64,000 nt of DNA, from positions 215,892 to 279,891 of the forward strand of contig JAWPOF010000007.1 of assembly GCA_033345275.1 (NCBI GenBank), given 5' to 3'. Origin of the DNA: Alphaproteobacteria bacterium. GTDB lineage: Bacteria > Pseudomonadota > Alphaproteobacteria > Rs-D84. The translations under genes were made by a program, and so were the position numbers. Numbering within the stretch: position 1 is the stretch's first letter; each line of letters opens with the position of its first letter. Positions 4,565 through 49,815 of the stretch are shown piece after piece. The notes under the pieces are model-generated. The model saw only the letters and a program-made list of their open reading frames with translations. It was not told the origin of the DNA and ran no database searches.

Positions 4565-5845
4565 ATGAGATTAGTTCCTCGCAGTTTTTTATGGCGAACC
4601 ATATTAATGATTTTAGTACCATTGATTGTCGCACAGGTTATCGTTGCCAACGCGTTCTTTGGTAACCATTGGTCACGCGTACACAATACATTGGCTCGCA
4701 CATTGGCAGGCGAAATCGCAACAATAATGAACTTTATTGACGAAGGCAACACAAATGCTGCACAAAAAATGTCACGTGACATCGGTATCAATGTCACGGT
4801 CAATGAAAAACTGAACCGCCCCAAACACAACGACAATCATGCACGCGAAACAGGTCGCTTGACATCCGAACTAAGCCAACGTCTACATCGCGACGCAGAT
4901 ATTTACATGGATCGCAACAAGCGGCTTATCTTTATTGACATACCAACCCAGAACAATCAGATTATAACATTTGGCACATCGCTATATCGGATATATTCCA
5001 CCAGCACCGAAGTATTTATTATATGGCTAATTGGTTCTATTTTGATTGTATCAATTTTAATTGCCCCGTTTATTATTACGCACACCCGCAGCATTCGTCG
5101 TATTGCGCATGCGGCGGGTCGCTTTGGTCGCGGTTTGGACGCACCTGGTTTTTCTCCAACAGGCTCCAAAGAAATCCGCGAAGCCGCCACATCTATGATA
5201 ACTATGAAAGAGCGTTTGGATAGATACAACCGAACTCGCACAGATATGTTGAACGCGGTCAGTCACGACCTTAAAGCACCATTAACCCGCATGCGTCTGG
5301 CACTAGAAACGGGGACGGCCACCAATGACAATTTGATTCGCGACATAGATCGCATGGCAGAAATGGTGAACGGTTATCTGGCATTCGCTCGTGGCGAAGC
5401 CCCGGAAATCGAACAGGCAACCGAATTGCCTCCAATGCTCACACGAATCGCGCGCGACGCGGCACCAACAAAAAAAATCATAACAAATTTCCCGGACACC
5501 CCAACACAATTCTATGCGCATCCAATGGCATTGGCGCACGCATTCAGCAACATTATTGAAAACGCCGCCAGATACTCACACAAAATCATCAGAATTACCG
5601 AACGCGATTACGCCGACAAAATCGAGGTTATTATCGAAGACGACGGCCCTGGAATCCCGGACAGTCGCAAACGTGATGCCTTGCGTCCATTTGTTCGTCT
5701 GGACGATTCGCGCAGTTCAGAAACAGGCGGAACAGGGCTGGGGCTGTCAATCGCCCAAACTGCAATTGAAAATCATGGCGGACAACTATTCCTGGAAGAC
5801 AGCGAATTTGGCGGTCTGCTTGTCAGGATAGTTTTACCTATCTAG
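4565..5845 (+). CDS. EnvZ-like sensor histidine kinase
   Basis: It has two TM segments, H-box 'AVSHDLKAPLTRM', N-box 'NIIENAARYS' and G-boxes 'EDDGPGIP' and 'GGTGLGLSI'. Confidence 0.85.
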   Translation: MRLVPRSFLWRTILMILVPLIVAQVIVANAFFGNHWSRVHNTLARTLAGEIATIMNFIDEGNTNAAQKMSRDIGINVTVNEKLNRPKHNDNHARETGRLTSELSQRLHRDADIYMDRNKRLIFIDIPTQNNQIITFGTSLYRIYSTSTEVFIIWLIGSILIVSILIAPFIITHTRSIRRIAHAAGRFGRGLDAPGFSPTGSKEIREAATSMITMKERLDRYNRTRTDMLNAVSHDLKAPLTRMRLALETGTATNDNLIRDIDRMAEMVNGYLAFARGEAPEIEQATELPPMLTRIARDAAPTKKIITNFPDTPTQFYAHPMALAHAFSNIIENAARYSHKIIRITERDYADKIEVIIEDDGPGIPDSRKRDALRPFVRLDDSRSSETGGTGLGLSIAQTAIENHGGQLFLEDSEFGGLLVRIVLPI

Positions 5846-40012: not shown

Positions 40013-40145
40013 TCTCTATGCCCTTAAATATATTCTGTGCGCGTTTAACAATTGTAGCATCAACAGGCTTTTTCAAATCATTGAAAAAACTAGCACCAGG
40101 TGCAGTAACACCCTTAACACCAAAATTATTACGCATATTTTTCAT
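39981..40145 (-). CDS. small ORF upstream of and overlapping the GNAT gene (possible antitoxin)
   Basis: ORF 39981..40181, with likely start MKNMRNNFGV. It overlaps the GNAT start as in TA operons. I cannot see sequence similarity to DUF1778. Confidence 0.25.
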   Translation of the reverse strand: MKNMRNNFGVKGVTAPGASFFNDLKKPVDATIVKRAQNIFKGIENVKVCRVDAQ

Positions 40146-40310
40146 AGGTTTACCCTTATATCTGTTTGCACTTTGGCACAAGAAACGTTATAAGTCAAGC
40201 AACGGAATAAAAATTCTCCCTCATCCTTGCTCATAATTATACCATAAATTTACGCAAAAATCAATAGCATTTTATGCTTAACGATTCATTTTAGCACATG
40301 GTTTGAACTT

Positions 40311-40333
40311 AAAAAAAACCCGAACATTCGGGG
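40311..40333 (-). terminator. terminator retained next to the displaced tRNA-Arg 3' half
   Basis: On the minus strand, CCCGAATGTTCGGG is followed by a T8 run, 10 nt beyond the tRNA-derived repeat. Confidence 0.55.
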
Positions 40334-40343
40334 CTTTTATATC

Positions 40344-40387
40344 TGGCGTGCCCAGCAGGACTCGAACCTGCAACCTATTGCTTAGAA
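40344..40387 (-). repeat. direct repeat: 3' half of tRNA-Arg(UCU), from CCA end to anticodon loop
   Basis: TGGCGTGCCCAGCAGGACTCGAACCTGCAACCTATTGCTTAGAA matches 54682-54725 at 43 of 44 positions (C/T at position 18). Homology stops inside the anticodon loop. Confidence 0.9.
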
Positions 40388-40606
40388 ATCGTCTGAACCC
40401 AGACCGATGGTTCGCCCGATTTCTGCCCACTTGCGCCATTTTACCCTTATGGCAAACGCCATACTATGTAGCAAATATGTAACATTTTTGTAAAAATGTC
40501 CATAAAAAACTATAAAACTCCCTTTGTTGTATCTTGCACGCTGTTTTTTACTGACAAATATTTTGAACCATTGTATAAATAATATCGTTATGTACATGAA
40601 AGGACT

Positions 40607-40852
40607 ATGGAAATGGACAATATTTCAAATTTATTACAAGAGGCGAAACCGCTGTACTTGCAACGCAAGCAAATACGCAATCGTGTTAAATACCATTGTA
40701 TGGTCGTTGCAGTGGTGGCAATTTTTACCCCAATTTTTATCCATACACATCAAAATAACATTGATGTCGGTGCGCTGTATGCAGAATTGTATTCCACAGA
40801 CACAAATACCGAATACTATATTGATGAATTTGATGCCATAGGAATCATTTAA
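40607..40852 (+). CDS. small membrane hypothetical protein
   Basis: The 81-aa product has one TM, 'CMVVAVVAIFTPIFI'. Confidence 0.3.
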   Translation: MEMDNISNLLQEAKPLYLQRKQIRNRVKYHCMVVAVVAIFTPIFIHTHQNNIDVGALYAELYSTDTNTEYYIDEFDAIGII

Positions 40853-40921
40853 TGCGCGATACTGTGGATACGTATAAATTTCTGGTTCGCAAAATCGCAT
40901 AAATTCGGGCAAATAACACGA

Positions 40922-40946
40922 AATAAAAAATCCCGGAACACCGGGA
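40922..40946 (-). terminator. terminator following the tRNA-like fragment
   Basis: On the minus strand, TCCCGGTGTTCCGGGA is followed by TTTTTTATTT, starting 6 nt after the CCA-like end. Confidence 0.55.
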
Positions 40947-40951
40947 AATTC

Positions 40952-40983
40952 TGGTAGCAGCGGAGGGATTCGGACCCCCGACC
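40952..40983 (-). pseudogene. tRNA 3'-end-like fragment (T arm + acceptor strand + CCA) without a 5' half
   Basis: Reverse complement: GGTCGGGGGTCCGAATCCCTCCGCTGCTACCA. The T stem-loop is plausible, but no matching 5' acceptor strand, D arm or anticodon arm lies upstream. Confidence 0.4.
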
Positions 40984-41227
40984 AAAGGATTATGATAAGC
41001 AACCTAAACACGCCATACACCGTAGATTTCTGCGGTTTTTTGACTTTTGTAATGGCAGATGTCGCTAATATGTCGCCCACCGATTACAAGATTTTGCGAG
41101 TAAATACAAAAACTTACAAAAGCCAGCACAATGGTAAAAATATCACAATAAGCAAGACAAGTTTTTTATATATTGAAATGACGTATTGAATGCTTTGAAT
41201 AGAATTAAATAAAAATAGGTAAGTATC

Positions 41228-41256
41228 TTGACTTTTTTATAAAAATCCTATACCAT
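41228..41256 (+). promoter_or_regulatory. sigma70-like promoter of the thrS-paralog cassette
   Basis: TTGACT, a 17-nt spacer, then TACCAT (alternatively TATACC). Confidence 0.4.
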
Positions 41257-41266
41257 ACCAAACGTT

Positions 41267-41323
41267 ATGAAATTGTTATTTTTTATCTTTGAAACTTATA
41301 CTACAACCCCTTTTGGGGTGTAA
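41267..41323 (+). promoter_or_regulatory. 18-codon Thr-rich mini-ORF in the thrS-paralog leader (candidate leader peptide)
   Basis: ATG AAA TTG TTA TTT TTT ATC TTT GAA ACT TAT ACT ACA ACC CCT TTT GGG GTG TAA encodes MKLLFFIFETYTTTPFGV*. The Thr codons lie in the 5' arm of an imperfect hairpin at 41294-41325 (ACTTA...ACCCC TTTT GGGGT...TAAGT). Confidence 0.4.
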
Positions 41324-41410
41324 GTTCTTGTGCGTTTGCAAAAAAACAATAAAATCAGATGATGTAAAAACAAGGCTATTTTGAGCCTACTTGTATAAAA
41401 AGGTTAAATA

Positions 41411-43174
41411 ATGTCAAACAAATATGAAATAGAAATAATCAGACATAGTCTGGCACACGTTTTGGCGGCGGCTATAAAAAAACTATACCCAGATGTAAAA
41501 TTTGGCGGTGGTCCCGCTATTGCTAATGGCTTTTATTATGATTTTGATACGGAACATAGATTTTCTGATGCAGAATTTGCCACAATTGAAAAGGAAATGA
41601 AAAACCTAATTAAAAGCCGCGGTAATTTCGTTCAAAAAAACGTGTCTCTTGATGAAGCGAAAGAGATTTTCAAAGACCAACCATATAAAACCGAATGGCT
41701 AAATGAATATAATGATTTTGGCAAACAGCTATCTATTTACTCTTTTCGTGATTTTACAGACTTGTGTATTGGTCCCCACGTTGAAAATTCAAAAGATTTA
41801 CCAACAGACTCTTTTAAAATCAAATCTATTGCCGGCGCTTATTGGAAAGGCGACAGTAAAAATAAAATGTTGCAACGTATTTATGTAGATGCTTTCGCCA
41901 CAAAAGAAGAATTGGATTCGTTTCTTTTCGCACAAGAGGAGGCCGCAAAACGAGACCATAGAAAAATTGGTCCGGCGCTAGATTTATTTTTCTTTGATGA
42001 AAGGTCTCCGGGCGTTCCGTATTTTATGCCAAACGGGTGGATTGTTTATCGCGAATTATATAATTTTTGGTCCGAATATCACGAAAAACACGGCTATTTG
42101 GAATTTCGTTCGCCACTGATGAACAAAAAAGAACTGTACGAAACAAGTGGGCATTGGGAACATTATAAGGATAGTATGTTCACTTTCAAAGAAGATGATA
42201 ACAATGTTTTTGCTCTAGCGCCAATGTCTTGTCCGAATGCTATTGTTGCATATCAACACGAATCACGCAGTTATCACGATTTACCGTGGCGTTTGGCCGA
42301 TGCAGATATGCTCTATCGTTATGAAAATTCTGGTGCTTTGAACGGGTTGTTTAGGTCTTTTGAATTTAATCAAGACGATGCGCATATTTTTATTAGTGAA
42401 GATATGATAGAAGACGAGTACAATCGTATTATTGACATAATTCAATATTATTATAAATTGTTTGATATGAAATATTTTATAAAATTATCAACAAGACCTG
42501 ACGATTTTATGGGAGATATTGAAACTTGGAACAAAGCAGAGGCCATTTTGAAAAAAGTACTTACTGCACGATTTGGAGAAAATGGTTTTGGAATCAAGGA
42601 AAAAGACGGTGCGTTCTATGGACCAAAATTAGACATTCAGATGGTTGATAGTTTGGGAAGAGAATGGCAAACAGGTACTATCCAATTAGATTTCCAATTG
42701 CCACGAAATTTCAACTGTGTGTACACGGATAAGAATGGCGAGAAACAAACACCAATTATTGTTCATCGTACCGTTTATGGTTCTTTGGGCAGATTTATGG
42801 GATTGATGCTGGAACACTTGGCAGGCAAGCTGCCCGTTTGGTTGTCTCCTGTTCACGCAGTAATTATACCGATTTCCGACCACTGCAAAGAATATGCAGA
42901 TAGCATAGCTGCCCAGTTGCAAGATGTATATGTAAGAACTGCAACAGCTGGATTGCGCATCAAAAAAGACTATTCGTCTGAAAGTATGCAAAAGAAGATA
43001 CGAAATGCGCAACTTAAACAAGTTCCATATATGATTATTGTTGGCGATAAAGAACTAGAATCGCAAACAATATCGGTCAGAACCAGAGACGGCAAACAAG
43101 AAAATAATGTACAAATAGATAGTTTTATACAAAAGTTAACAGATAAAATCAAAAATAGAGACTTAACTATATGA
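41411..43174 (+). CDS. thrS: threonyl-tRNA synthetase paralog lacking the N-terminal TGS domain
   Basis: The 587-aa product starts at the editing domain ('IIRHSLAHVLAAAIKKLYP...GFYYDFD'). The class II core is 'PMSCPNAIV', 'YRYENSGALNGLFRSFEFNQDDAHIF' and 'PIIVHRTVYGSLGRF', followed by an anticodon-binding domain. It is AT-rich and inside the island. Confidence 0.9.
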   Translation: MSNKYEIEIIRHSLAHVLAAAIKKLYPDVKFGGGPAIANGFYYDFDTEHRFSDAEFATIEKEMKNLIKSRGNFVQKNVSLDEAKEIFKDQPYKTEWLNEYNDFGKQLSIYSFRDFTDLCIGPHVENSKDLPTDSFKIKSIAGAYWKGDSKNKMLQRIYVDAFATKEELDSFLFAQEEAAKRDHRKIGPALDLFFFDERSPGVPYFMPNGWIVYRELYNFWSEYHEKHGYLEFRSPLMNKKELYETSGHWEHYKDSMFTFKEDDNNVFALAPMSCPNAIVAYQHESRSYHDLPWRLADADMLYRYENSGALNGLFRSFEFNQDDAHIFISEDMIEDEYNRIIDIIQYYYKLFDMKYFIKLSTRPDDFMGDIETWNKAEAILKKVLTARFGENGFGIKEKDGAFYGPKLDIQMVDSLGREWQTGTIQLDFQLPRNFNCVYTDKNGEKQTPIIVHRTVYGSLGRFMGLMLEHLAGKLPVWLSPVHAVIIPISDHCKEYADSIAAQLQDVYVRTATAGLRIKKDYSSESMQKKIRNAQLKQVPYMIIVGDKELESQTISVRTRDGKQENNVQIDSFIQKLTDKIKNRDLTI

Positions 43175-43183
43175 TTTTATTGA

Positions 43184-43212
43184 TTGACAATTGGAAAATA
43201 ATCCTTTATCCT
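43184..43212 (+). promoter_or_regulatory. sigma70-like promoter in front of the peptide gene
   Basis: TTGACA, a 17-nt spacer, then TATCCT, 10 nt after the thrS stop. Confidence 0.5.
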
Positions 43213-43243
43213 TGGTGTAGGCCACCAGAAAAAGGAGTCTATT

Positions 43244-43345
43244 ATGACAAAAATTAAATTGTCTGCGATAATCCGTGTATCAAAATGCAATTCTTGCACT
43301 TGCTGCTGTGGCGGCGGCGGTGTTGGAGGAGATCCAGACCAATAA
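43244..43345 (+). CDS. 33-aa Cys-rich peptide, candidate RiPP precursor (unannotated, below the ORF-track cutoff)
   Basis: My translation is MTKIKLSAIIRVSKCNSCTCCCGGGGVGGDPDQ*. The strong RBS AAAGGAG ends 6 nt before the ATG. The gene lies 83 nt upstream of the radical SAM gene and is followed by a hairpin. Confidence 0.7.
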   Translation: MTKIKLSAIIRVSKCNSCTCCCGGGGVGGDPDQ

Positions 43346-43365
43346 AAAATACAGAGATAGTATTT

Positions 43366-43397
43366 CTGGGAAATATGTATTTGTTTCCCAGTTTTTT
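43366..43397 (+). terminator. intra-operon (probably leaky) terminator after the peptide gene
   Basis: CTGGGAAA-TATGTATTTG-TTTCCCAG (8-bp perfect stem) is followed by TTTTTT. Confidence 0.65.
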
Positions 43398-43428
43398 AAT
43401 AAATAATCTAATAAAGACAGGCAAAAAA

Positions 43429-44589
43429 ATGTTAAAACTATCCTCAGACATTATACGGTTCAAAAATTTTCTTATTAACACCAGAACAGGCGACTCTTTT
43501 GAAGTAGATGAAAAAACGAGTAGACTGATTGACTTTAAGGCAATAAATAGAACGGAAGAAAATTCATCTTTATTGGATACGATGATAGATAACAACATTA
43601 TTGTTGATACTGCTTATGATAAAGAAAAAAACTTTTTTCATTTGCAATGGCATTTGTTAAACGCCTGTAATTTAAGATGCAAACATTGTTATGATTGGAA
43701 AAACAAAACACAGACTTTAAATATTAAACAGATGTTTAAGGTGTATGACGATTTTGTATTTTTTGTAAAAAACGTTGGAGCACAGGCAGAAATTTCTTTG
43801 ACGGGAGGCGAACCTACCCTGTTCAAAGATTTAATACCCCTTATAGAATACATAAAGTCTAGAGATGTTTTTGCCCAAATTTACATACTATCTAATGGTT
43901 ATAATTTATTTAGCGATGAACTCTTGGAATGTTGCATAAAACATAATGTTGGTGTTCAAATCAGTTTAGATGGCTTAGAAGAAAAGCACGACGAGATAAG
44001 AGGCACTGGCGCTTTTGCTAAATCTATTGCAACTATCAAACAGCTAATAAGCAAAGGAATTTCTACCACGGTTCATTGCGTTCTTATGAAACGGAATATT
44101 GATGGAGTAGCAGAGTTTATTAGATTTTTAGACCCGATGGGATTATCAAGAATCAATTTCTCTACATTGATACCTATTGGTCCGGGGGCAGCAGAAGCAG
44201 CAGCAACTCCTCAAGAATTAAAAAAATGTATGGAGATGATAGTTGAAATGCAATCGACCACAAAAGCACGCATAATAGGAGAACGTCCATTATGGGCTTT
44301 GGTAGGTGGTTCTGGTATTTGCCCAATAGGAGACAAAACGTTGACCGTAGATGCAGCAGGCAATATGATGCCGTGTCGCAGACTACCTATGGTTATGGGA
44401 AATGTTCTTGAAGATAATTTATTAGAAGTTTGGTTAAAAAATGACTTTTTGAATAAAATGAGAGATAAGAAAAAGAATCTGGAAAAATGCGGAACGTGCA
44501 AATTTCTGGAAAGATGCGGCGGGTGTAGAGCTATGGCAGCGGCTGTCACTGGCAATCCACTAGCAGCAGACCCCTATTGCTGGCTCTAA
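43429..44589 (+). CDS. radical SAM/SPASM-type peptide-modifying enzyme (candidate maturase)
   Basis: ORF 43285..44589, with real start most likely MLKLSSD at 43429 because the upstream part overlaps the peptide gene out of frame. It has the 'CNLRCKHC' CxxxCxxC cluster, a ~90-aa N-terminal pre-domain, and the C-terminal Cys cluster 'CPIGDKTLTVDAAGNMMPC...CGTCKFLERCGGC...C'. Confidence 0.8.
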   Translation: MLKLSSDIIRFKNFLINTRTGDSFEVDEKTSRLIDFKAINRTEENSSLLDTMIDNNIIVDTAYDKEKNFFHLQWHLLNACNLRCKHCYDWKNKTQTLNIKQMFKVYDDFVFFVKNVGAQAEISLTGGEPTLFKDLIPLIEYIKSRDVFAQIYILSNGYNLFSDELLECCIKHNVGVQISLDGLEEKHDEIRGTGAFAKSIATIKQLISKGISTTVHCVLMKRNIDGVAEFIRFLDPMGLSRINFSTLIPIGPGAAEAAATPQELKKCMEMIVEMQSTTKARIIGERPLWALVGGSGICPIGDKTLTVDAAGNMMPCRRLPMVMGNVLEDNLLEVWLKNDFLNKMRDKKKNLEKCGTCKFLERCGGCRAMAAAVTGNPLAADPYCWL

Positions 44590-44632
44590 GTTATGGATAT
44601 AATACAATAAAAAAGCAGAACCTATTGATAAA

Positions 44633-45697
44633 ATGAGAGTAGTAATGAAAAATAGTTTGAACAAAAGTCTTTTAAAACAATTATTGAATACCGTTGTTCC
44701 TTCTGGTTATGAACAAGATATTGTTCGTCTTTGGACAAGTAAGGCAAAAGAGTTTACAAAAGATGTATATGTTGACTCAATGGGTTCTGCTCACGCTGTA
44801 ATAAATTCCAAGGCTAAAAGAAAAATTATAATAGCTGGACATTGTGATGAGATAGGTCTTATTGTAAAATCAATCACAGATAAGGGTTTTTTGAAAATAG
44901 GAACTATTGGTGGTTGGGACCCGCAAGTAGTTGTAGGACAACACGTTTTAATAAAAACCGCGAAAGGAATACAAAGGGGCGTTGTTGGTAAGCAACCAAT
45001 TCATAATATAATAGATATTAAAGCAGCCTCAAAAATAAAAGATTTATTTGTTGATATTGGCGCACCGGATAAACAATCCGCTGAAGCAATAGTGCAGATT
45101 GGGGACGCTATGGTTTTAGACCACGATTATGTAGAACTTCAAAACAATAACTTTGCTTCTAGGGGGTGCGATGATAAAGTCGGTGCTTTCATAGCATTGG
45201 AGGTTTTGCGTGAATTAAGCAAAGAAAAACTAGCAGTTGCAGTTGAGTTTATTGCATCTGTACAAGAAGAAGTCGGTACAAGAGGTATTCAACCTGCGGC
45301 ATATTTAGCAGATGCAGATATTGCTATCGCGGTAGATGTTAGCCCGACTAACGACTACCCCAATGCAGGCGCAGACAATGAACTTAAATTGGGCAAAGGG
45401 GCAGTAATCGGTAGAGGTCCACACGTAAATGCAAAATTATTTGAACTTCTCAAAAGTACTGCGGAATCCAATTCAATTCCATATCAAATAGAGGCTAGTG
45501 GTCGTCCATACGGAACAGACACAGAACCTTTGCAACGGGTTCGCAAGGGAACGGCGAGCGCTTTGCTTAGTATCCCTTGTAGGTATATTCATTCTCCATC
45601 TGAAACCTGCAATTTTGATGATATTCAGGCCATAATAAAATTGTTAGTACAAACTATATCTAAGATAACTACAAAAACAGATTTTAATTTTATTTAA
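44633..45697 (+). CDS. M42-family (FrvX/YsdC-like) aminopeptidase
   Basis: 'LLNTVVPSGYEQDI', 'IIIAGHCDEIGLIV', 'SRGCDDKVG', 'VQEEVGTRG' and 'PCRYIHSPSE'. The start is 44633 or MKNSL at 44645. Confidence 0.8.
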   Translation: MRVVMKNSLNKSLLKQLLNTVVPSGYEQDIVRLWTSKAKEFTKDVYVDSMGSAHAVINSKAKRKIIIAGHCDEIGLIVKSITDKGFLKIGTIGGWDPQVVVGQHVLIKTAKGIQRGVVGKQPIHNIIDIKAASKIKDLFVDIGAPDKQSAEAIVQIGDAMVLDHDYVELQNNNFASRGCDDKVGAFIALEVLRELSKEKLAVAVEFIASVQEEVGTRGIQPAAYLADADIAIAVDVSPTNDYPNAGADNELKLGKGAVIGRGPHVNAKLFELLKSTAESNSIPYQIEASGRPYGTDTEPLQRVRKGTASALLSIPCRYIHSPSETCNFDDIQAIIKLLVQTISKITTKTDFNFI

Positions 45698-45852: not shown

Positions 45853-45981
45853 ATGGCTAACACCAGCGCAAAGTTATTGCGTGCTAAACAGACTAAAAAT
45901 GATGAGTTCTATACGCAATACAACGATATAAAATCAGAACTAGAGGGAGAGAAATATGAAGAACAAACAGACCAAGAATAA
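45853..45981 (+). pseudogene. N-terminal fragment of an EcoRI-like (DEFYTQ-type) adenine methyltransferase
   Basis: 'MANTSAKLLRAKQTKNDEFYTQYNDIKSELE' has RBS AGGAG. As I recall it, this is the N-terminus of phage/RM adenine MTases. The ORF ends after 42 codons, overlapping the macA-like start. Confidence 0.5.
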
Positions 45982-47155
45982 AAAATCCAGCAAACGCATT
46001 CTGAAATACGGTGTGTTTGCGCTGGCAATTATTGGTACGATTGCAGTGTTTAGTGGTGGTGGCGATGAAAAACGCAACTATATCACGATAAATATAACGC
46101 GTGGCGACCTGTCCTATACGGTCAGTGCAACCGGTGAAATTCAACCTGTCAACACAGTAAATGTGGGTTCGCAAGTATCGGGAACAATTGACAATCTGTA
46201 TGTTGACTTTAATTCCAACGTTAAAAAAGGCGATATATTGCTGACGATTGAACCATCTGTTCTTCAGGCATCTGTTGACGAGGCCATGGCATCACTAACA
46301 TCTGCAAAATCCCAACGGGATTTCGCATTCAGCGAATACAAACGCAACAAAACCTTGTATAACGATGGCTTTATTTCACGTGCAGAAATGGAACAATCCG
46401 AAACCACATATAACCAGGCCGAACAATCTGTTAAAAAAGCCCAATCTACATACGACCGTGCGGTGACAAATCTGGGCTATGCAACGATTACATCCCCTGT
46501 CGATGGCACAGTTATATCACGCAAAGTTGATGTTGGTCAAACGGTTGCGGCATCTTTTTCAACACCCGACCTGTTTGAAATCGCCGAAGACCTGACCAAA
46601 ATGCAGATTGAAACATCTGTATCCGAGGCAGACATTGGTGTTATCCGCGAAGGTCAACCCGTCACATTCACCGTTGATGCATACCCAACAGATATTTTTA
46701 ACGGCACTGTTCGTCAGGTTCGCTTGTCCCCCACAACAACATCCAACGTTGTCGTTTATACGGTTGTAATTGATGTTGATAATTCTGATATGCGCCTGAT
46801 GCCAGGAATGACCGCATTCGTAACCGTTATTATCAACAGTGCTGAAAATGTGTACAAAGCACAAAATGCCGCTTTCCTTATTCGCAATTTCAAAAGCATT
46901 GACCCAACATTAGATGAAACGATTACACCCGACACCCATCTGGCAATTATGCGTGATGGTGAAATTCAATTTATTGAATATAAAAAAGGGCTGGAATCTG
47001 CCACAGAAACACAAATTATATCAGACCAGATAATGGATGGCGACCGCATCGTTGTCGGTGTCCAAGGACAAACATCCACAACCCAATCAAGCAACAATCG
47101 CGGTGGTCCAATGGGCGGTCCTGGTGGTGGCGGTCCAATGGGTAGACCAATGTAA
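45956..47155 (+). CDS. macA: HlyD/MacA-family periplasmic adaptor
   Basis: It has an N-terminal TM, 'ATGEIQPVNTVNVGSQVSGTI', a coiled-coil hairpin, 'ATITSPVDGTVISRKVDVGQTV' and a Gly-rich tail. Confidence 0.8.
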   Translation: MKNKQTKNKKSSKRILKYGVFALAIIGTIAVFSGGGDEKRNYITINITRGDLSYTVSATGEIQPVNTVNVGSQVSGTIDNLYVDFNSNVKKGDILLTIEPSVLQASVDEAMASLTSAKSQRDFAFSEYKRNKTLYNDGFISRAEMEQSETTYNQAEQSVKKAQSTYDRAVTNLGYATITSPVDGTVISRKVDVGQTVAASFSTPDLFEIAEDLTKMQIETSVSEADIGVIREGQPVTFTVDAYPTDIFNGTVRQVRLSPTTTSNVVVYTVVIDVDNSDMRLMPGMTAFVTVIINSAENVYKAQNAAFLIRNFKSIDPTLDETITPDTHLAIMRDGEIQFIEYKKGLESATETQIISDQIMDGDRIVVGVQGQTSTTQSSNNRGGPMGGPGGGGPMGRPM

Positions 47156-47168
47156 TATGGGGGCGACT

Positions 47169-47906
47169 ATGGCAAAAAATACACCTGTTATTTCAATGCA
47201 TAAAATCTGCAAATCGTTTCCCATGGAAATGGGCGGCGAACAACAGGTTTTATTTGACAACACATTTGATATTTATTCTGGCGAATTTGTATCTATTATG
47301 GGACCATCAGGGTCTGGCAAATCAACATGTATGAACATTATTGGTGCGCTGGACACCGCCACATCTGGGACATATAAACTCTATGGCACAGATATTACAA
47401 CAATGTTGCCCGATGAATTGGCCGTTGTCAGAAATGAACATATTGGCTTTGTTTTTCAACAGTTTAACCTGTTGCCGAAACGCAATGTTTTGGACAATGT
47501 AATGTTGCCATTGATGTATCGCGGACTGCCAATGGCGAAACGGGTACAAAGCGCCCGCGAAATGCTGAAACTGGTGGGGTTGGAAAACTTTGAAACATAC
47601 CTGCCAACACAATTATCAGGGGGGATGAAGCAACGTGTTGCAATCGCACGTGCGTTGGCAGGCAACCCAAAACTGATTTTGGCAGACGAACCTACAGGCG
47701 CACTGGACAGTAAAATGGGAAATGAAATTTTACAGTTCTTCAAGAAATTAAATCGTGAACTGGGGATAACAATCATAATGATTACACACGAATTTGATAT
47801 TGCCATGTATTCTGACCGCCTGATTCATATCTATGACGGGCATATCACATACGATGGCAAAATCCCAAAATCAGAATCACATATACCAAAGGCATATAAA
47901 AAATGA
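47169..47906 (+). CDS. macB: MacB/LolD-type ABC transporter ATP-binding protein
   Basis: The start MAKNTPVI has a GGGGG RBS. It has Walker A 'GPSGSGKST', signature 'LSGGMKQRVAIARAL' and Walker B 'ILADEPTGALD'. Confidence 0.88.
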   Translation: MAKNTPVISMHKICKSFPMEMGGEQQVLFDNTFDIYSGEFVSIMGPSGSGKSTCMNIIGALDTATSGTYKLYGTDITTMLPDELAVVRNEHIGFVFQQFNLLPKRNVLDNVMLPLMYRGLPMAKRVQSAREMLKLVGLENFETYLPTQLSGGMKQRVAIARALAGNPKLILADEPTGALDSKMGNEILQFFKKLNRELGITIIMITHEFDIAMYSDRLIHIYDGHITYDGKIPKSESHIPKAYKK

Positions 47907-49120
47907 ATATACAAGATATCGCCAAAGAATCATGGCTGTCCATCAGTGGTAATAAGATGCGGTCTTTTTTAACCGTCTTGGGAATTGTTATCGGTGTTAT
48001 GGCGGTGGTAATTATGGTGGCTGTCGGTGAAACTGTACAAAAATCCATCACAGACCAATTTTCATCGCTGGGGACGAACACCATTATGATACGAGCTGGC
48101 GCGGCACAGTCCGCCGGTGTGCGTGGTGGAAATCGCCAAACCCTAACCATGGACGATGCAGAATTTTTGGGACAATTACCCGATGTTGCGGCGGTCACCC
48201 CTGTTCAAAATGCTGCCGCCCAGGTTGTCTATGGGAATAAAAACTGGTCCACATCAATGGTCGGTGCATGGCCAGATTATGCAACCGTACAAAATATAGA
48301 AATAGAATATGGAACTTTCTTTGATATGTCTGCGGTACGAAACGCATCAACACATGCTGTCATTGGTCCCGAAACCGCCGAAGAGCTGGGGATGGGGAAA
48401 AATCCTGTGGGGCAAGTTATACGTGTGCAAAACACACCATTTACAATTGTCGGGGTCACACGTGCCAAGGGTGATTCATCTATGGGCAGCCAAGACGATA
48501 TGATTATCATTCCAATCACAACATTAAAGAAACGCCTGTCGGGTTCTCGTTTCCCAAATGCAGTACAAATGGTGTCATTAAAACTATATAACGATGCTGA
48601 TAATAATTTGGCAATTGAACAAATGACATTATTGTTGCGTCAACGACATAAACTGGACGACAATGATGCAGATGATTTTCAAATTACAGATATGAAGCAA
48701 GTCATGGAAACAATGGAAACTGTATCTGGATACTTAAAATTATTACTGGTTGCGATTGCGGCGGTGTCGCTTTTGGTTGGGGCAATCGGCATTATGAATA
48801 TGATGTTGGTTTCTGTTGCAGAACGCACACGTGAAATCGGTATTCGCAAGGCAATTGGTGCACGCGAACGCATGATTATTATTCAGTTTTTGTCGGAATC
48901 TGTTCTGATTTCTTTTATCGGTTCTATGATTGGTTTGATATTAGGGGTGGGATTATCCCAGGGCATTGGGCGTTTTGTATTGGGGTATGCTGTACCGTTC
49001 AGTATTTGGCCGGTTGTTGTATCGGTTACAGTTGCGATTGTGGTAGGGCTCGCATCTGGTGTTATGCCTGCACGCAAAGCCGCCAAATTACACCCAATAG
49101 ACAGCCTGCGATACGAGTAA
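47903..49120 (+). CDS. MacB/FtsX-type ABC transporter permease
   Basis: The 405-aa product has TM1, a large periplasmic domain and a C-terminal FtsX 3-TM bundle ('ERTREIGIRKAIGAR'). It overlaps the ATPase gene by 4 nt. Confidence 0.85.
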   Translation: MNIQDIAKESWLSISGNKMRSFLTVLGIVIGVMAVVIMVAVGETVQKSITDQFSSLGTNTIMIRAGAAQSAGVRGGNRQTLTMDDAEFLGQLPDVAAVTPVQNAAAQVVYGNKNWSTSMVGAWPDYATVQNIEIEYGTFFDMSAVRNASTHAVIGPETAEELGMGKNPVGQVIRVQNTPFTIVGVTRAKGDSSMGSQDDMIIIPITTLKKRLSGSRFPNAVQMVSLKLYNDADNNLAIEQMTLLLRQRHKLDDNDADDFQITDMKQVMETMETVSGYLKLLLVAIAAVSLLVGAIGIMNMMLVSVAERTREIGIRKAIGARERMIIIQFLSESVLISFIGSMIGLILGVGLSQGIGRFVLGYAVPFSIWPVVVSVTVAIVVGLASGVMPARKAAKLHPIDSLRYE

Positions 49121-49281: not shown

Positions 49282-49815
49282 ATGACAGCAATAAACAAGC
49301 AACACGGATTTTATGGTGCGCTGGCGGCGCACTATGACAGTCCAGACCACCGAAAAGCAATCTGGGACGTGACGGTCAAACGCCTGAGGCAAATTCACCC
49401 CGAAAAGTCCGCCGAAGAAATCATAAACTTTCTGAACAGTCGCGCCGGGCGACACCTGGCCGACGAGATATTCGACGGTCCCGGCACCATGAGTTATGGG
49501 GTTGCAATGCTGCGTGTGGCAATGCTGAACAAACTAAAAATGGCCAAGTGGTGGGCATATCACACCGGTACAACACCATGCCCCGTCACGGTGGACAAGC
49601 GCATGCTGTACCGGTCCGCAATCAAGAACGAAATGCGCAACTGCCGCATCCGCAAATTGGTGGACGGTGCGCTGGCCTGTGCCCAGGACGACGTATGGCA
49701 GACCCCAGAAATGTGGTTAAAATCAGACCTGACGGGGCTGGACGAACTGGAAATGATATGGACACAGATTCAGCAAGAACTAAAAACCAAAGGCACCGCA
49801 CATGGAAACGATTGA
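49282..49815 (+). CDS. hypothetical protein (island)
   Basis: The 177-aa ORF is visibly GC-richer than its neighbours and overlaps the next ORF by 14 nt. Confidence 0.45.
   Translation: MTAINKQHGFYGALAAHYDSPDHRKAIWDVTVKRLRQIHPEKSAEEIINFLNSRAGRHLADEIFDGPGTMSYGVAMLRVAMLNKLKMAKWWAYHTGTTPCPVTVDKRMLYRSAIKNEMRNCRIRKLVDGALACAQDDVWQTPEMWLKSDLTGLDELEMIWTQIQQELKTKGTAHGND

Follow-up and report, generated by a model that had tools for sequence, protein, structure and literature searches.

A very small Cys/Thr-rich peptide gene beside a radical SAM/SPASM enzyme gene in Candidatus Enterousia, with recurrent linkage to threonyl-tRNA synthetase genes

Does the short spacer between a threonyl-tRNA synthetase gene (thrS) and a radical SAM (rSAM) enzyme gene in a Candidatus Enterousia chromosome hold a gene of its own and, if so, what does that gene make? 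The question is raised by an open reading frame (ORF) at positions 43244-43345 of the window, by which we mean the whole 64,000-nucleotide stretch of contig JAWPOF010000007.1 that was analysed. The host belongs to the order Rs-D84 of the Alphaproteobacteria, and the leuS and thrS genes of the window are up to 88% and 86% identical, respectively, to those of Enterousia metagenome-assembled genomes (MAGs). An earlier reading of the letters alone (the sequence-only reading) had proposed that the ORF encodes a Cys-rich substrate peptide for the neighbouring rSAM enzyme. We put at roughly 0.8 the probability that it is a genuine translated gene for the 33-residue precursor of an undescribed family of very small, Cys/Thr-rich peptides resembling peptides that are synthesised by the ribosome and modified post-translationally (RiPPs).

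The ORF runs from an ATG at 43244 to a TAA at 43343-43345, and its product, MTKIKLSAIIRVSKCNSCTCCCGGGGVGGDPDQ, contains five Cys (positions 15, 18, 20, 21 and 22), six Gly and an acidic tail. Approximately residues 1 to 14 or 17 (MTKIKLSAIIRVSK...) make up the leader, followed by the core, (C)NSCTCCCGGGGVGGDPDQ. On re-reading, the coordinates, this composition and the AAAGGAG motif with its 6-nt spacer ahead of the start codon all proved to be as the sequence-only reading had given them. It had also held the mechanically called rSAM ORF (43285..44589, 434 aa), which overlaps the small ORF in a different frame, to be over-extended, and homologues indeed all align from the Met at 43429 (386 aa, 100% coverage). 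The length of the small ORF is by itself unremarkable, since an ATG ORF of at least 33 codons arose in 23% of 5000 dinucleotide-preserving shuffles of the 254-nt intergenic spacer. Shuffles with such an ORF and a Shine-Dalgarno motif made up 1.5%, and those that additionally had at least four Cys just 0.06%.

In our judgement, the decisive evidence comes from the comparison of related loci, at which the frame, the translation signal and the motifs are conserved. The comparison covered the same rSAM clade (42-86% identity) in 25 lineages after dereplication, drawn from metagenomes and genomes and including Enterousia, a Tannerella MAG, Nomura-, Moran- and Staskawiczbacteria, and MAGs labelled Burkholderiales and Alphaproteobacteria; 24 were assessable, with flanking sequence available. 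The expectation that similar peptides would be found beside rSAM genes was borne out in 24/24 of these, where a homologous small ORF adjoins the enzyme gene, with frame, motifs and ribosome-binding site kept across several phyla. It lies upstream in nine lineages (e.g., MKKVKISTIAKKRTMKCGVCTCCRCSGPQ, MKKIKLSQVAPKVSGSACTCCQCGGPTGGGTTSN and MSEIKLSAITPYVNGSSCTCCQGGGQMG), downstream in 14 (e.g., MKKVKLIAILSANTCKGACTCCSCGGPQPSFSTK, MKKVPLTVLQPSVKSSACTCCCCGGPL and MKKVSIARIKPVINNSASCCTSCK) and divergently in one (L088). The peptides are 24-39 aa long and nearly all share the leader M-[KR]-K-[IV]-x-[LI]-x-x-[IV], followed by a core of the form CTCCxC(GG...) or SCCTSC[KH] (alignments A3 and A4), with L175 (CAYCQTC) and L088 (YCNICQ) as divergent exceptions. 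GGAG or GGAGG stands 5-9 nt before the start codon in nearly all of 22 homologous peptide ORFs.

The closest relative, L163, whose rSAM enzyme is 86% identical to that of the window, carries the peptide MKKIKLSTVIRVSNSNSCTCCCGGGGVGGDPDQQ. Counted from the alignment, the two ORFs differ by 10 synonymous and five non-synonymous substitutions; within the core NSCTCCCGGGGVGGDPDQ there are five synonymous differences and no non-synonymous ones. This pattern of substitution supports purifying selection on the small ORF. It also refines the Cys-rich core as first drawn: CTCC (C18-T19-C20-C21) is conserved, whereas Cys15 is not, being Ser in L163. The window peptide matches no Pfam or NCBIfam model. 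Pfam scans of this peptide together with 13 other family members returned no match, and a search of the 13 against NCBIfam, even at E = 10, gave a single weak ‘geopeptide’ match (E = 0.028) for a Patescibacteria-type peptide. An Rfam scan of 42800-43700 returned two sub-threshold chance matches and nothing else. The peptide family is not described in the literature that we searched on geopeptides, on rSAM enzymes or ranthipeptides in Patescibacteria (the candidate phyla radiation), or on threonyl-tRNA synthetase (ThrRS) in connection with RiPPs or radical SAM enzymes.

The partner enzyme carries a Radical_SAM domain (Pfam, 67 bits) and a SPASM domain (39 bits against a cut-off of 21.5). It has the cluster motif CNLRCKHC, whose Cys (C80, C84 and C87) are invariant in 30 clade members; within the SPASM region, C298 and C316 are invariant and C354, C357, C363, C366 and C384 at least 90% conserved (alignment A1). 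The clade is compact, with approximately 30 clusters at 42-86% identity, and all of its members have an extra N-terminal domain of about 65 residues that is missing from the next tier of homologues (at most 38% identity). An AlphaFold2 model of the enzyme reached a mean predicted local distance difference test score (pLDDT) of 89.5. The N-terminal domain (approximately residues 1-65) is predicted, at a pLDDT of about 90, to consist of four short strands, a pair of helices and a further strand. Foldseek ranked the RiPP maturases SkfB (8e-20), CteB and SuiB as the best matches of the model, with PqqE among the closest solved relatives, and the full-length alignments to CteB and SuiB, both of which have N-terminal domains of the peptide-binding type, span 430-460 columns. 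A profile of the clade searched against the PDB placed SkfB (5e-31), CteB (2e-15), PqqE and anSME closest. Viral and plasmid collections held no close relative of the rSAM enzyme, the best being at most 30% identical.

Sequence analysis thus shows a conserved gene with translation signals that is paired strictly with a single radical SAM/SPASM clade. That the peptide is the substrate of the adjacent enzyme, as had been proposed, is strongly supported by the 24/24 pairing, the conserved leader and Cys/Thr core, the Shine-Dalgarno motif and purifying selection. In the mechanism that we consider best, the basic leader, M-[KT]-K-[IV]-K-[LI]-S-x-[IV], would bind the extra N-terminal domain of the enzyme, which would then modify the CTCC core with the radical SAM cluster and the two auxiliary clusters of its SPASM domain. 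The likeliest modification would be intramolecular Cys-to-carbon thioether crosslinks of the sactipeptide or ranthipeptide type, because the nearest characterised relatives, SkfB and CteB, make them; by this analogy, the peptide is probably thioether-crosslinked. The adjacent M42 aminopeptidase would probably then remove the leader. The hairpin between the two genes (-16 kcal/mol, z = -4.2 by RNA folding) probably ends the transcript of thrS and the peptide gene and lessens read-through into the enzyme gene, which could keep precursor mRNA above that of the enzyme, in line with the surplus of precursor message that is usual. Hairpins follow many of the family peptide genes, with equivalents of the window hairpin in L163, L001 and L003. 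The promoter-like site ahead of the peptide gene is weak evidence, as such sites are no more frequent in the region than in shuffled sequence.

Several points weigh against this explanation. The nearest characterised relatives of the enzyme are only 17-20% identical to it, and it falls below the cut-off of every curated model among its best 25 of the 81 NCBIfam families matched at E ≤ 0.01. The best of these are TIGR04053 (156 bits, cut-off 395), ACGX (153, 400), SbtM (145, 350) and GeoRSP (125, 400), with TIGR04463 at 69 bits. The ranthipeptide and sactipeptide models rSAM_PapB (91, 340), rSAM_skfB (80, 300) and StsB (97, 625) score lower than these four, as do the cofactor models pqqE (84, 381) and mycofactocin rSAM (100, 265). 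Ten other clade and next-tier members likewise score below the cut-offs. Other SPASM chemistries (thiooxazole formation, epimerisation, C-C crosslinks and cofactor formation) are equally open because no curated cut-off is reached. The N-terminal domain has no Pfam PqqD match (E ≤ 0.01), and its role as a peptide-recognition element is one that we infer from its position and predicted topology. The MacA/MacB-like genes downstream of the cassette are possibly its exporter, but their membership is doubtful because they have host-like composition (GC content at third codon positions, GC3, of 0.39-0.41) and are not conserved beside the cassette in other lineages. Finally, most loci are minimal, with peptide and rSAM genes and no protease or exporter, an organisation more in keeping with a product that stays in the cell than with a classical secreted bacteriocin.

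The recurrent presence of ThrRS genes beside the pair was unexpected. A ThrRS gene immediately adjoins the peptide and rSAM genes in 8/25 lineages, and in not one of the 139 control loci, which were second-tier rSAM loci with a median length of 6.3 kb. By our own arithmetic, a Fisher test gives approximately 1e-7 for this difference; the lineages are not fully independent, but the arrangements occur in unrelated hosts. There are four arrangements: thrS, peptide and rSAM genes in tandem (window and L163), peptide, rSAM and thrS in tandem (L003-5), peptide and rSAM followed by a convergent thrS (L165-170), and rSAM and peptide followed by a convergent thrS (L087, L339 and L337). All eight linked peptides have CTCC[CQG][CG]GG cores; in loci of the CTCC type the pair has come to lie beside thrS repeatedly and independently. 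The linked synthetases are varied, comprising bacterial enzymes without the TGS domain, full-length bacterial enzymes and an archaeal-type catalytic core without the editing domain (PRK03991, 472 bits). L339 has a bacterial-type gene and an editing-less archaeal-type core side by side, and L337 has the archaeal-type core.

Among the linked lineages the rSAM enzymes are 45-60% identical to each other and the ThrRS proteins 37-50%. The greater likeness of the rSAM enzymes, together with the native Enterousia type of the window thrS, argues that the cassette moves by itself and comes to lie next to various resident thrS genes. That thrS had been transferred along with the cassette was considered as a general explanation and rejected on the same two grounds. 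The cassette is absent from all 80 other related thrS loci, including those of 13 Enterousia/Rs-D84 genomes (sister species), and a tblastn search of the window with five ThrRS proteins found no displaced thrS. In L165, what is left of another thrS, 62 codons from its 3' end (5655-5843, minus strand), lies immediately upstream of the peptide gene; this remnant and the C-terminus encoded by the intact thrS across the cassette are 43% identical, which suggests that an older thrS was disrupted by a past insertion or replacement. A resistance signature was sought in the two cassette-linked Enterousia ThrRS proteins, which share just one change at otherwise invariant positions.

Two observations on the cassette and on thrS stand apart from this argument. 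In the Tannerella MAG (L001, 304-2633), the cassette lies right downstream of primase-like (Toprim/CHC2) and Mob_Pre relaxase genes, and is thus on what these genes mark as a mobilisable element. Enterousia thrS lacks the TGS domain, and its nearest relatives outside Rs-D84 and some termite-gut spirochaete MAGs are Patescibacteria ThrRS genes (approximately 50% identity; window against L177-L256). With a GC content below that of leuS in several Enterousia genomes, this hints that the lineage acquired its thrS horizontally long ago.

A second link to aminoacyl-tRNA comes from a highly conserved 258-aa protein, encoded after the peptide gene in six Patescibacteria lineages of the SCCTSCK type. 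Loci with this protein are L085 (4385-5161), L010, L012, L014, L016, L017, L084 and L086. It is restricted to Patescibacteria-type genomes and absent from the window. Its AlphaFold model (pLDDT 92) has as best fold matches the aminoacyl-tRNA-dependent peptide synthases Sbb17/Sba18, FemX, the aminoacyl-phosphatidylglycerol synthases (MprF) and ATE1, and it also resembles tandem-GNAT acetyltransferases, with TM-scores of 0.45-0.47. At the sequence level, neither a Pfam match nor a PDB match by profile (E ≤ 1) was found. The fold therefore hints at a putative Fem-like aminoacyl-tRNA transferase, and this hint points in the same direction as the ThrRS linkage, towards aminoacyl-tRNA or ThrRS.

The repeated adjacency of ThrRS genes suggests that the role of the product, or its biosynthesis, is tied to ThrRS or aminoacyl-tRNA. 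If the two are coupled, the product might act on ThrRS as an inhibitor or regulator, might serve it, or might itself be assembled or tailored by means of an aminoacyl-tRNA. The literature that we searched holds no description of a RiPP linked to ThrRS or to Fem-like transferase genes, and we raise as a tentative possibility, rather than a favoured conclusion, that this is the first RiPP-type peptide system functionally coupled to ThrRS or aminoacyl-tRNA chemistry. Its hosts have genomes that are among the smallest known for bacteria.

The strongest of the competing explanations departs from our own only in the role of the product, which would not be a secreted antimicrobial; the peptide would be the precursor of an intracellular cofactor, metal-binding peptide or regulator, possibly with a function linked to ThrRS, a zinc enzyme, or to aminoacyl-tRNA. 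The redox cofactor pairs PqqA/PqqE and MftA/MftC are its analogues, and PqqE is, as noted, among the closest solved relatives of the enzyme. The minimal loci, found especially in Patescibacteria, speak for such a product, as do hosts with reduced genomes (less than approximately 1 Mbp in the gut lineage Ca. Enterousia; PMC12306168), the adjoining ThrRS genes in 8/25 lineages and the very short, thiol-rich cores (seven residues in the SCCTSCK type). However, the cores vary between lineages beyond what is usual for cofactor precursors, the patchy distribution and the absence from sister Enterousia thrS loci mark the system as accessory rather than essential, and the contexts in L001 (Mob_Pre relaxase) and L338 are of a mobile or defence type. 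On this balance we regard such a role as unlikely.

Alternatively, the product could be an inhibitor of ThrRS that is used against competitors, with the adjacent thrS as the protected or resistant target of the producer, in the manner of self-resistance genes in antibiotic clusters. ThrRS paralogues do confer self-resistance to borrelidin (BorO) and obafluorin (ObaO). The adjacency is specific to the clade (8/25 against 0/139), its four arrangements include convergent ones, for which simple co-transcription is excluded, two ThrRS genes lie at the cassette of L339 and an archaeal-type core at that of L337, and L165 has the remnant of a different thrS next to its cassette. Against this, the window thrS is of the ordinary Enterousia type, 86% identical to that of cassette-less species, and is probably the sole copy in a genome of approximately 0.9 Mbp. 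By sequence reading, the zinc-ligand motifs are intact. The single shared change at invariant positions in the two cassette-linked Enterousia proteins falls short of a resistance signature, and the lower identity among linked ThrRS than among rSAM enzymes argues that no resistant thrS allele travels with the cassette. A targeted literature search found no aminoacyl-tRNA synthetase (aaRS) self-resistance gene within a RiPP cluster. Overall, a self-protected ThrRS inhibitor seems improbable.

It has also to be asked whether the peptide is a substrate at all. The small ORF could instead be a regulatory leader, in which ribosome stalling at Cys or Thr codons would control the hairpin and thereby rSAM expression. 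The arrangement in the window invites this thought, as the ORF adjoins thrS, contains several Cys codons in a run (CTCCC) and is separated from the rSAM gene by a terminator-like hairpin. In 14 lineages, however, the peptide is encoded downstream of the enzyme, which makes attenuation of this kind impossible. The N-terminal leader is conserved at the amino acid level across phyla, the enzyme has an extra N-terminal domain typical of peptide-binding maturases, and RNA folding revealed no alternative anti-terminator structure, making this explanation very improbable. As for a chance open frame in the spacer, with the hairpin serving solely as the thrS terminator, its one attraction (the 23% of shuffles with an ORF as long) is outweighed by the 0.06% that also have a Shine-Dalgarno motif and at least four Cys, by the synonymous bias against L163 and by the retention of frame, motifs and ribosome-binding site in 24 lineages of different phyla on either side of the enzyme gene, and the conservation data effectively refute it.

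A precursor peptide matured by the adjacent enzyme thus remains the preferred interpretation, and the genes around the pair are in keeping with it. Candidate tailoring genes vary by lineage, with M42 in the window, L173 and L174, a TehB-like methyltransferase in L006 and L176, and the Fem-like tandem-GNAT protein in six Patescibacteria-type lineages; this variability supports a RiPP-type system, being typical of RiPP clusters. The methyltransferase gene (TehB/TPMT-like) follows the peptide gene in the Patescibacteria-type loci L006 (1921-4320) and L176 (5279-5857), the first of which additionally encodes another radical SAM enzyme as well as a protein with a PqqD domain. In L173 (5913-7365) and L174 (2431-4797), where M42 directly follows the rSAM gene as in the window, a second small ORF comes right after M42, followed by one (L173) or two (L174) rSAM genes. 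The second small ORF of L173 is Cys-rich (MDNNDFYAGELVVTNNFSTTVSCAMFDDPCGCEGGEGSCECGYDPECE), and this assemblage looks like a separate RiPP-like cluster next door.

In the window, the gene order is thrS, small ORF, rSAM/SPASM gene, M42 aminopeptidase and MacA/MacB-like exporter genes (Table 1). GC3 is 0.25 for M42 and 0.31 for both rSAM and thrS, against 0.40-0.52 for housekeeping genes of the window. As evidence of recent transfer, the low GC of thrS is not decisive, since thrS is also below leuS in GC in other Enterousia genomes.

Table 1. Positions of the cassette features and flanking genes in the window, and of ThrRS genes linked to the cassette in other lineages (coordinates of the respective locus).
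Feature	Coordinates	Strand	Evidence and remarks
thrS, threonyl-tRNA synthetase, 587 aa, without N-terminal TGS domain	41411..43174	+	NCBIfam TIGR00418, 615 bits (cut-off 384)
Promoter-like site TTGACA-17-TATCCT	43184..43212	+	Consensus scan, 10/12 consensus positions; between thrS and peptide gene
Shine-Dalgarno motif AAAGGAG	43231..43237	+	Read directly; 6-nt spacer to ATG 43244
Predicted precursor peptide gene, 33 aa	43244..43345	+	Direct sequence reading and family alignments
Hairpin, 10 bp + TTTTTT	43366..43397	+	Terminator scan; between peptide gene and rSAM gene
Predicted radical SAM/SPASM peptide maturase, 386 aa	43429..44589	+	Pfam Radical_SAM and SPASM
M42-family metallo-aminopeptidase, candidate leader-trimming peptidase	44633..45697	+	Pfam Peptidase_M42, 274 bits
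MacA-like adaptor and MacB-like ABC ATPase and permease	45956..49120	+	NCBIfam RND_mfp and MacA matches
Linked ThrRS gene, L003	4252-6027		
Linked ThrRS gene, L087	1447-3177		
Linked ThrRS gene, L165	7208-9142		
Linked ThrRS genes, L339	1620-3419 and 3726-5168		
Linked ThrRS gene, L337	2813-4237		

Further observations were made on the surroundings. The region 32582-45697 forms a low-GC block, with GC3 of 0.25-0.37 against 0.40-0.52 elsewhere in the window. It begins with a gene for a protein of 1859 aa (32582-38161, minus strand) that has an HExxH-like motif near its C-terminus, includes an Mpi-type serine invertase gene (38356-38958) overlapping an opposite-strand recombinase ORF (38876-39403), and continues with thrS, the cassette and the M42 gene. 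A 175-aa ORF and an overlapping 66-aa ORF at 39485-40181 (minus strand) match no Pfam or NCBIfam family; in layout and sequence they may resemble a GNAT-type toxin/antitoxin pair. Beyond the exporter genes, a 177-aa ORF (49282-49815, plus strand) without a family match has a GC content of 0.53 and a GC3 of 0.62, far above its surroundings, and is probably foreign DNA.

If correct, this interpretation adds an uncharacterised family of very small Cys/Thr-rich peptides, with its clade of maturases, to the radical SAM-modified peptides, and the mature cores may be only seven residues long. The family is almost confined to uncultured, genome-reduced bacteria, namely Patescibacteria, gut Ca. Enterousia and a few Bacteroidota, in which little secondary metabolism is presumed to exist and each gene that has been kept should count. 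What is most interesting about the system, and is explained least, is its association with ThrRS genes, which together with the Fem-like linkage provides a concrete, testable lead to the function or biosynthesis of the product. As the system is small (a peptide, one enzyme and one peptidase), it is well suited to heterologous reconstitution.

How, then, does the locus compare with known systems? The aaRS self-resistance genes BorO and ObaO provide a parallel for a ThrRS gene right beside a biosynthetic cassette, and two lineages here have an extra, divergent ThrRS copy. Those genes belong to polyketide or non-ribosomal pathways with a dedicated second ThrRS, whereas the ThrRS here is usually the ordinary housekeeping-type thrS of the host, in which no resistance signature was found. 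PqqA/PqqE and MftA/MftC are likewise minimal pairs of a peptide and an rSAM/SPASM enzyme, and PqqE is a detectable relative of the window enzyme. Their peptide recognition is PqqD-like and their product intracellular, both of which may also hold here. They differ in that the companion genes of those pathways are absent here and in the chemistry of the core, which is of the Cys/Thr type in this family.

Closer in outline are pairs defined in silico in NCBIfam/TIGRFAMs, in which a tiny Cys-rich peptide lies beside a SPASM enzyme. Those compared were GeoRSP/geopeptide (TIGR04303/TIGR04229), ACGX (TIGR04340), the SbtM thio(seleno)oxazole system (TIGR04082), TIGR04053 and TIGR04463. They supply the highest NCBIfam scores of the enzyme, which at 125-156 bits (69 for TIGR04463) are far below cut-offs of 350-525. 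Unlike those of the ACGX and SbtM systems, the peptides here have neither ACGX repeats nor an in-frame UGA (selenocysteine), and their leader and core motifs are distinct.

SkfB, the sactipeptide maturase of the sporulation killing factor, is the best solved-structure match by both profile and fold, and forms a Cys-to-C-alpha thioether on a ribosomal peptide. The enzyme nevertheless scores 80 bits against the rSAM_skfB cut-off of 300, and the N-terminal domain of SkfB and its precursor SkfA are unrelated to those here. The sequence-only reading had set the peptide apart from SCIFF precursors, and rightly, since the cut-offs of the NCBIfam models, for peptides and for maturases alike, are not reached. 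SCIFF precursors are approximately 45 aa long, compared to 24-39 aa here, and differ in leader and core. The window peptide and enzyme both fall below the curated NCBIfam cut-offs, the enzyme is about 18% identical to CteB, and the SCIFF maturase model is not among its best 25 of 81 matched families. The hosts of SCIFF systems are Clostridia, as opposed to Patescibacteria, Enterousia and Bacteroidota. In its architecture, however, the SCIFF/thermocellin system (CteA and CteB) is a close likeness. A small Cys-rich precursor is encoded next to an rSAM/SPASM enzyme with two auxiliary clusters and an N-terminal domain for peptide binding, a role that the extra domain here may share, and CteB is among the best matches of the window enzyme in both sequence and structure. 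The characterised product of CteB contains a Cys-Thr thioether, and the window core has a conserved Thr flanked by Cys. On present sequence evidence, the peptide and its enzyme are best placed as a new family among the radical SAM/SPASM-modified ribosomal peptides, a class that is already known.

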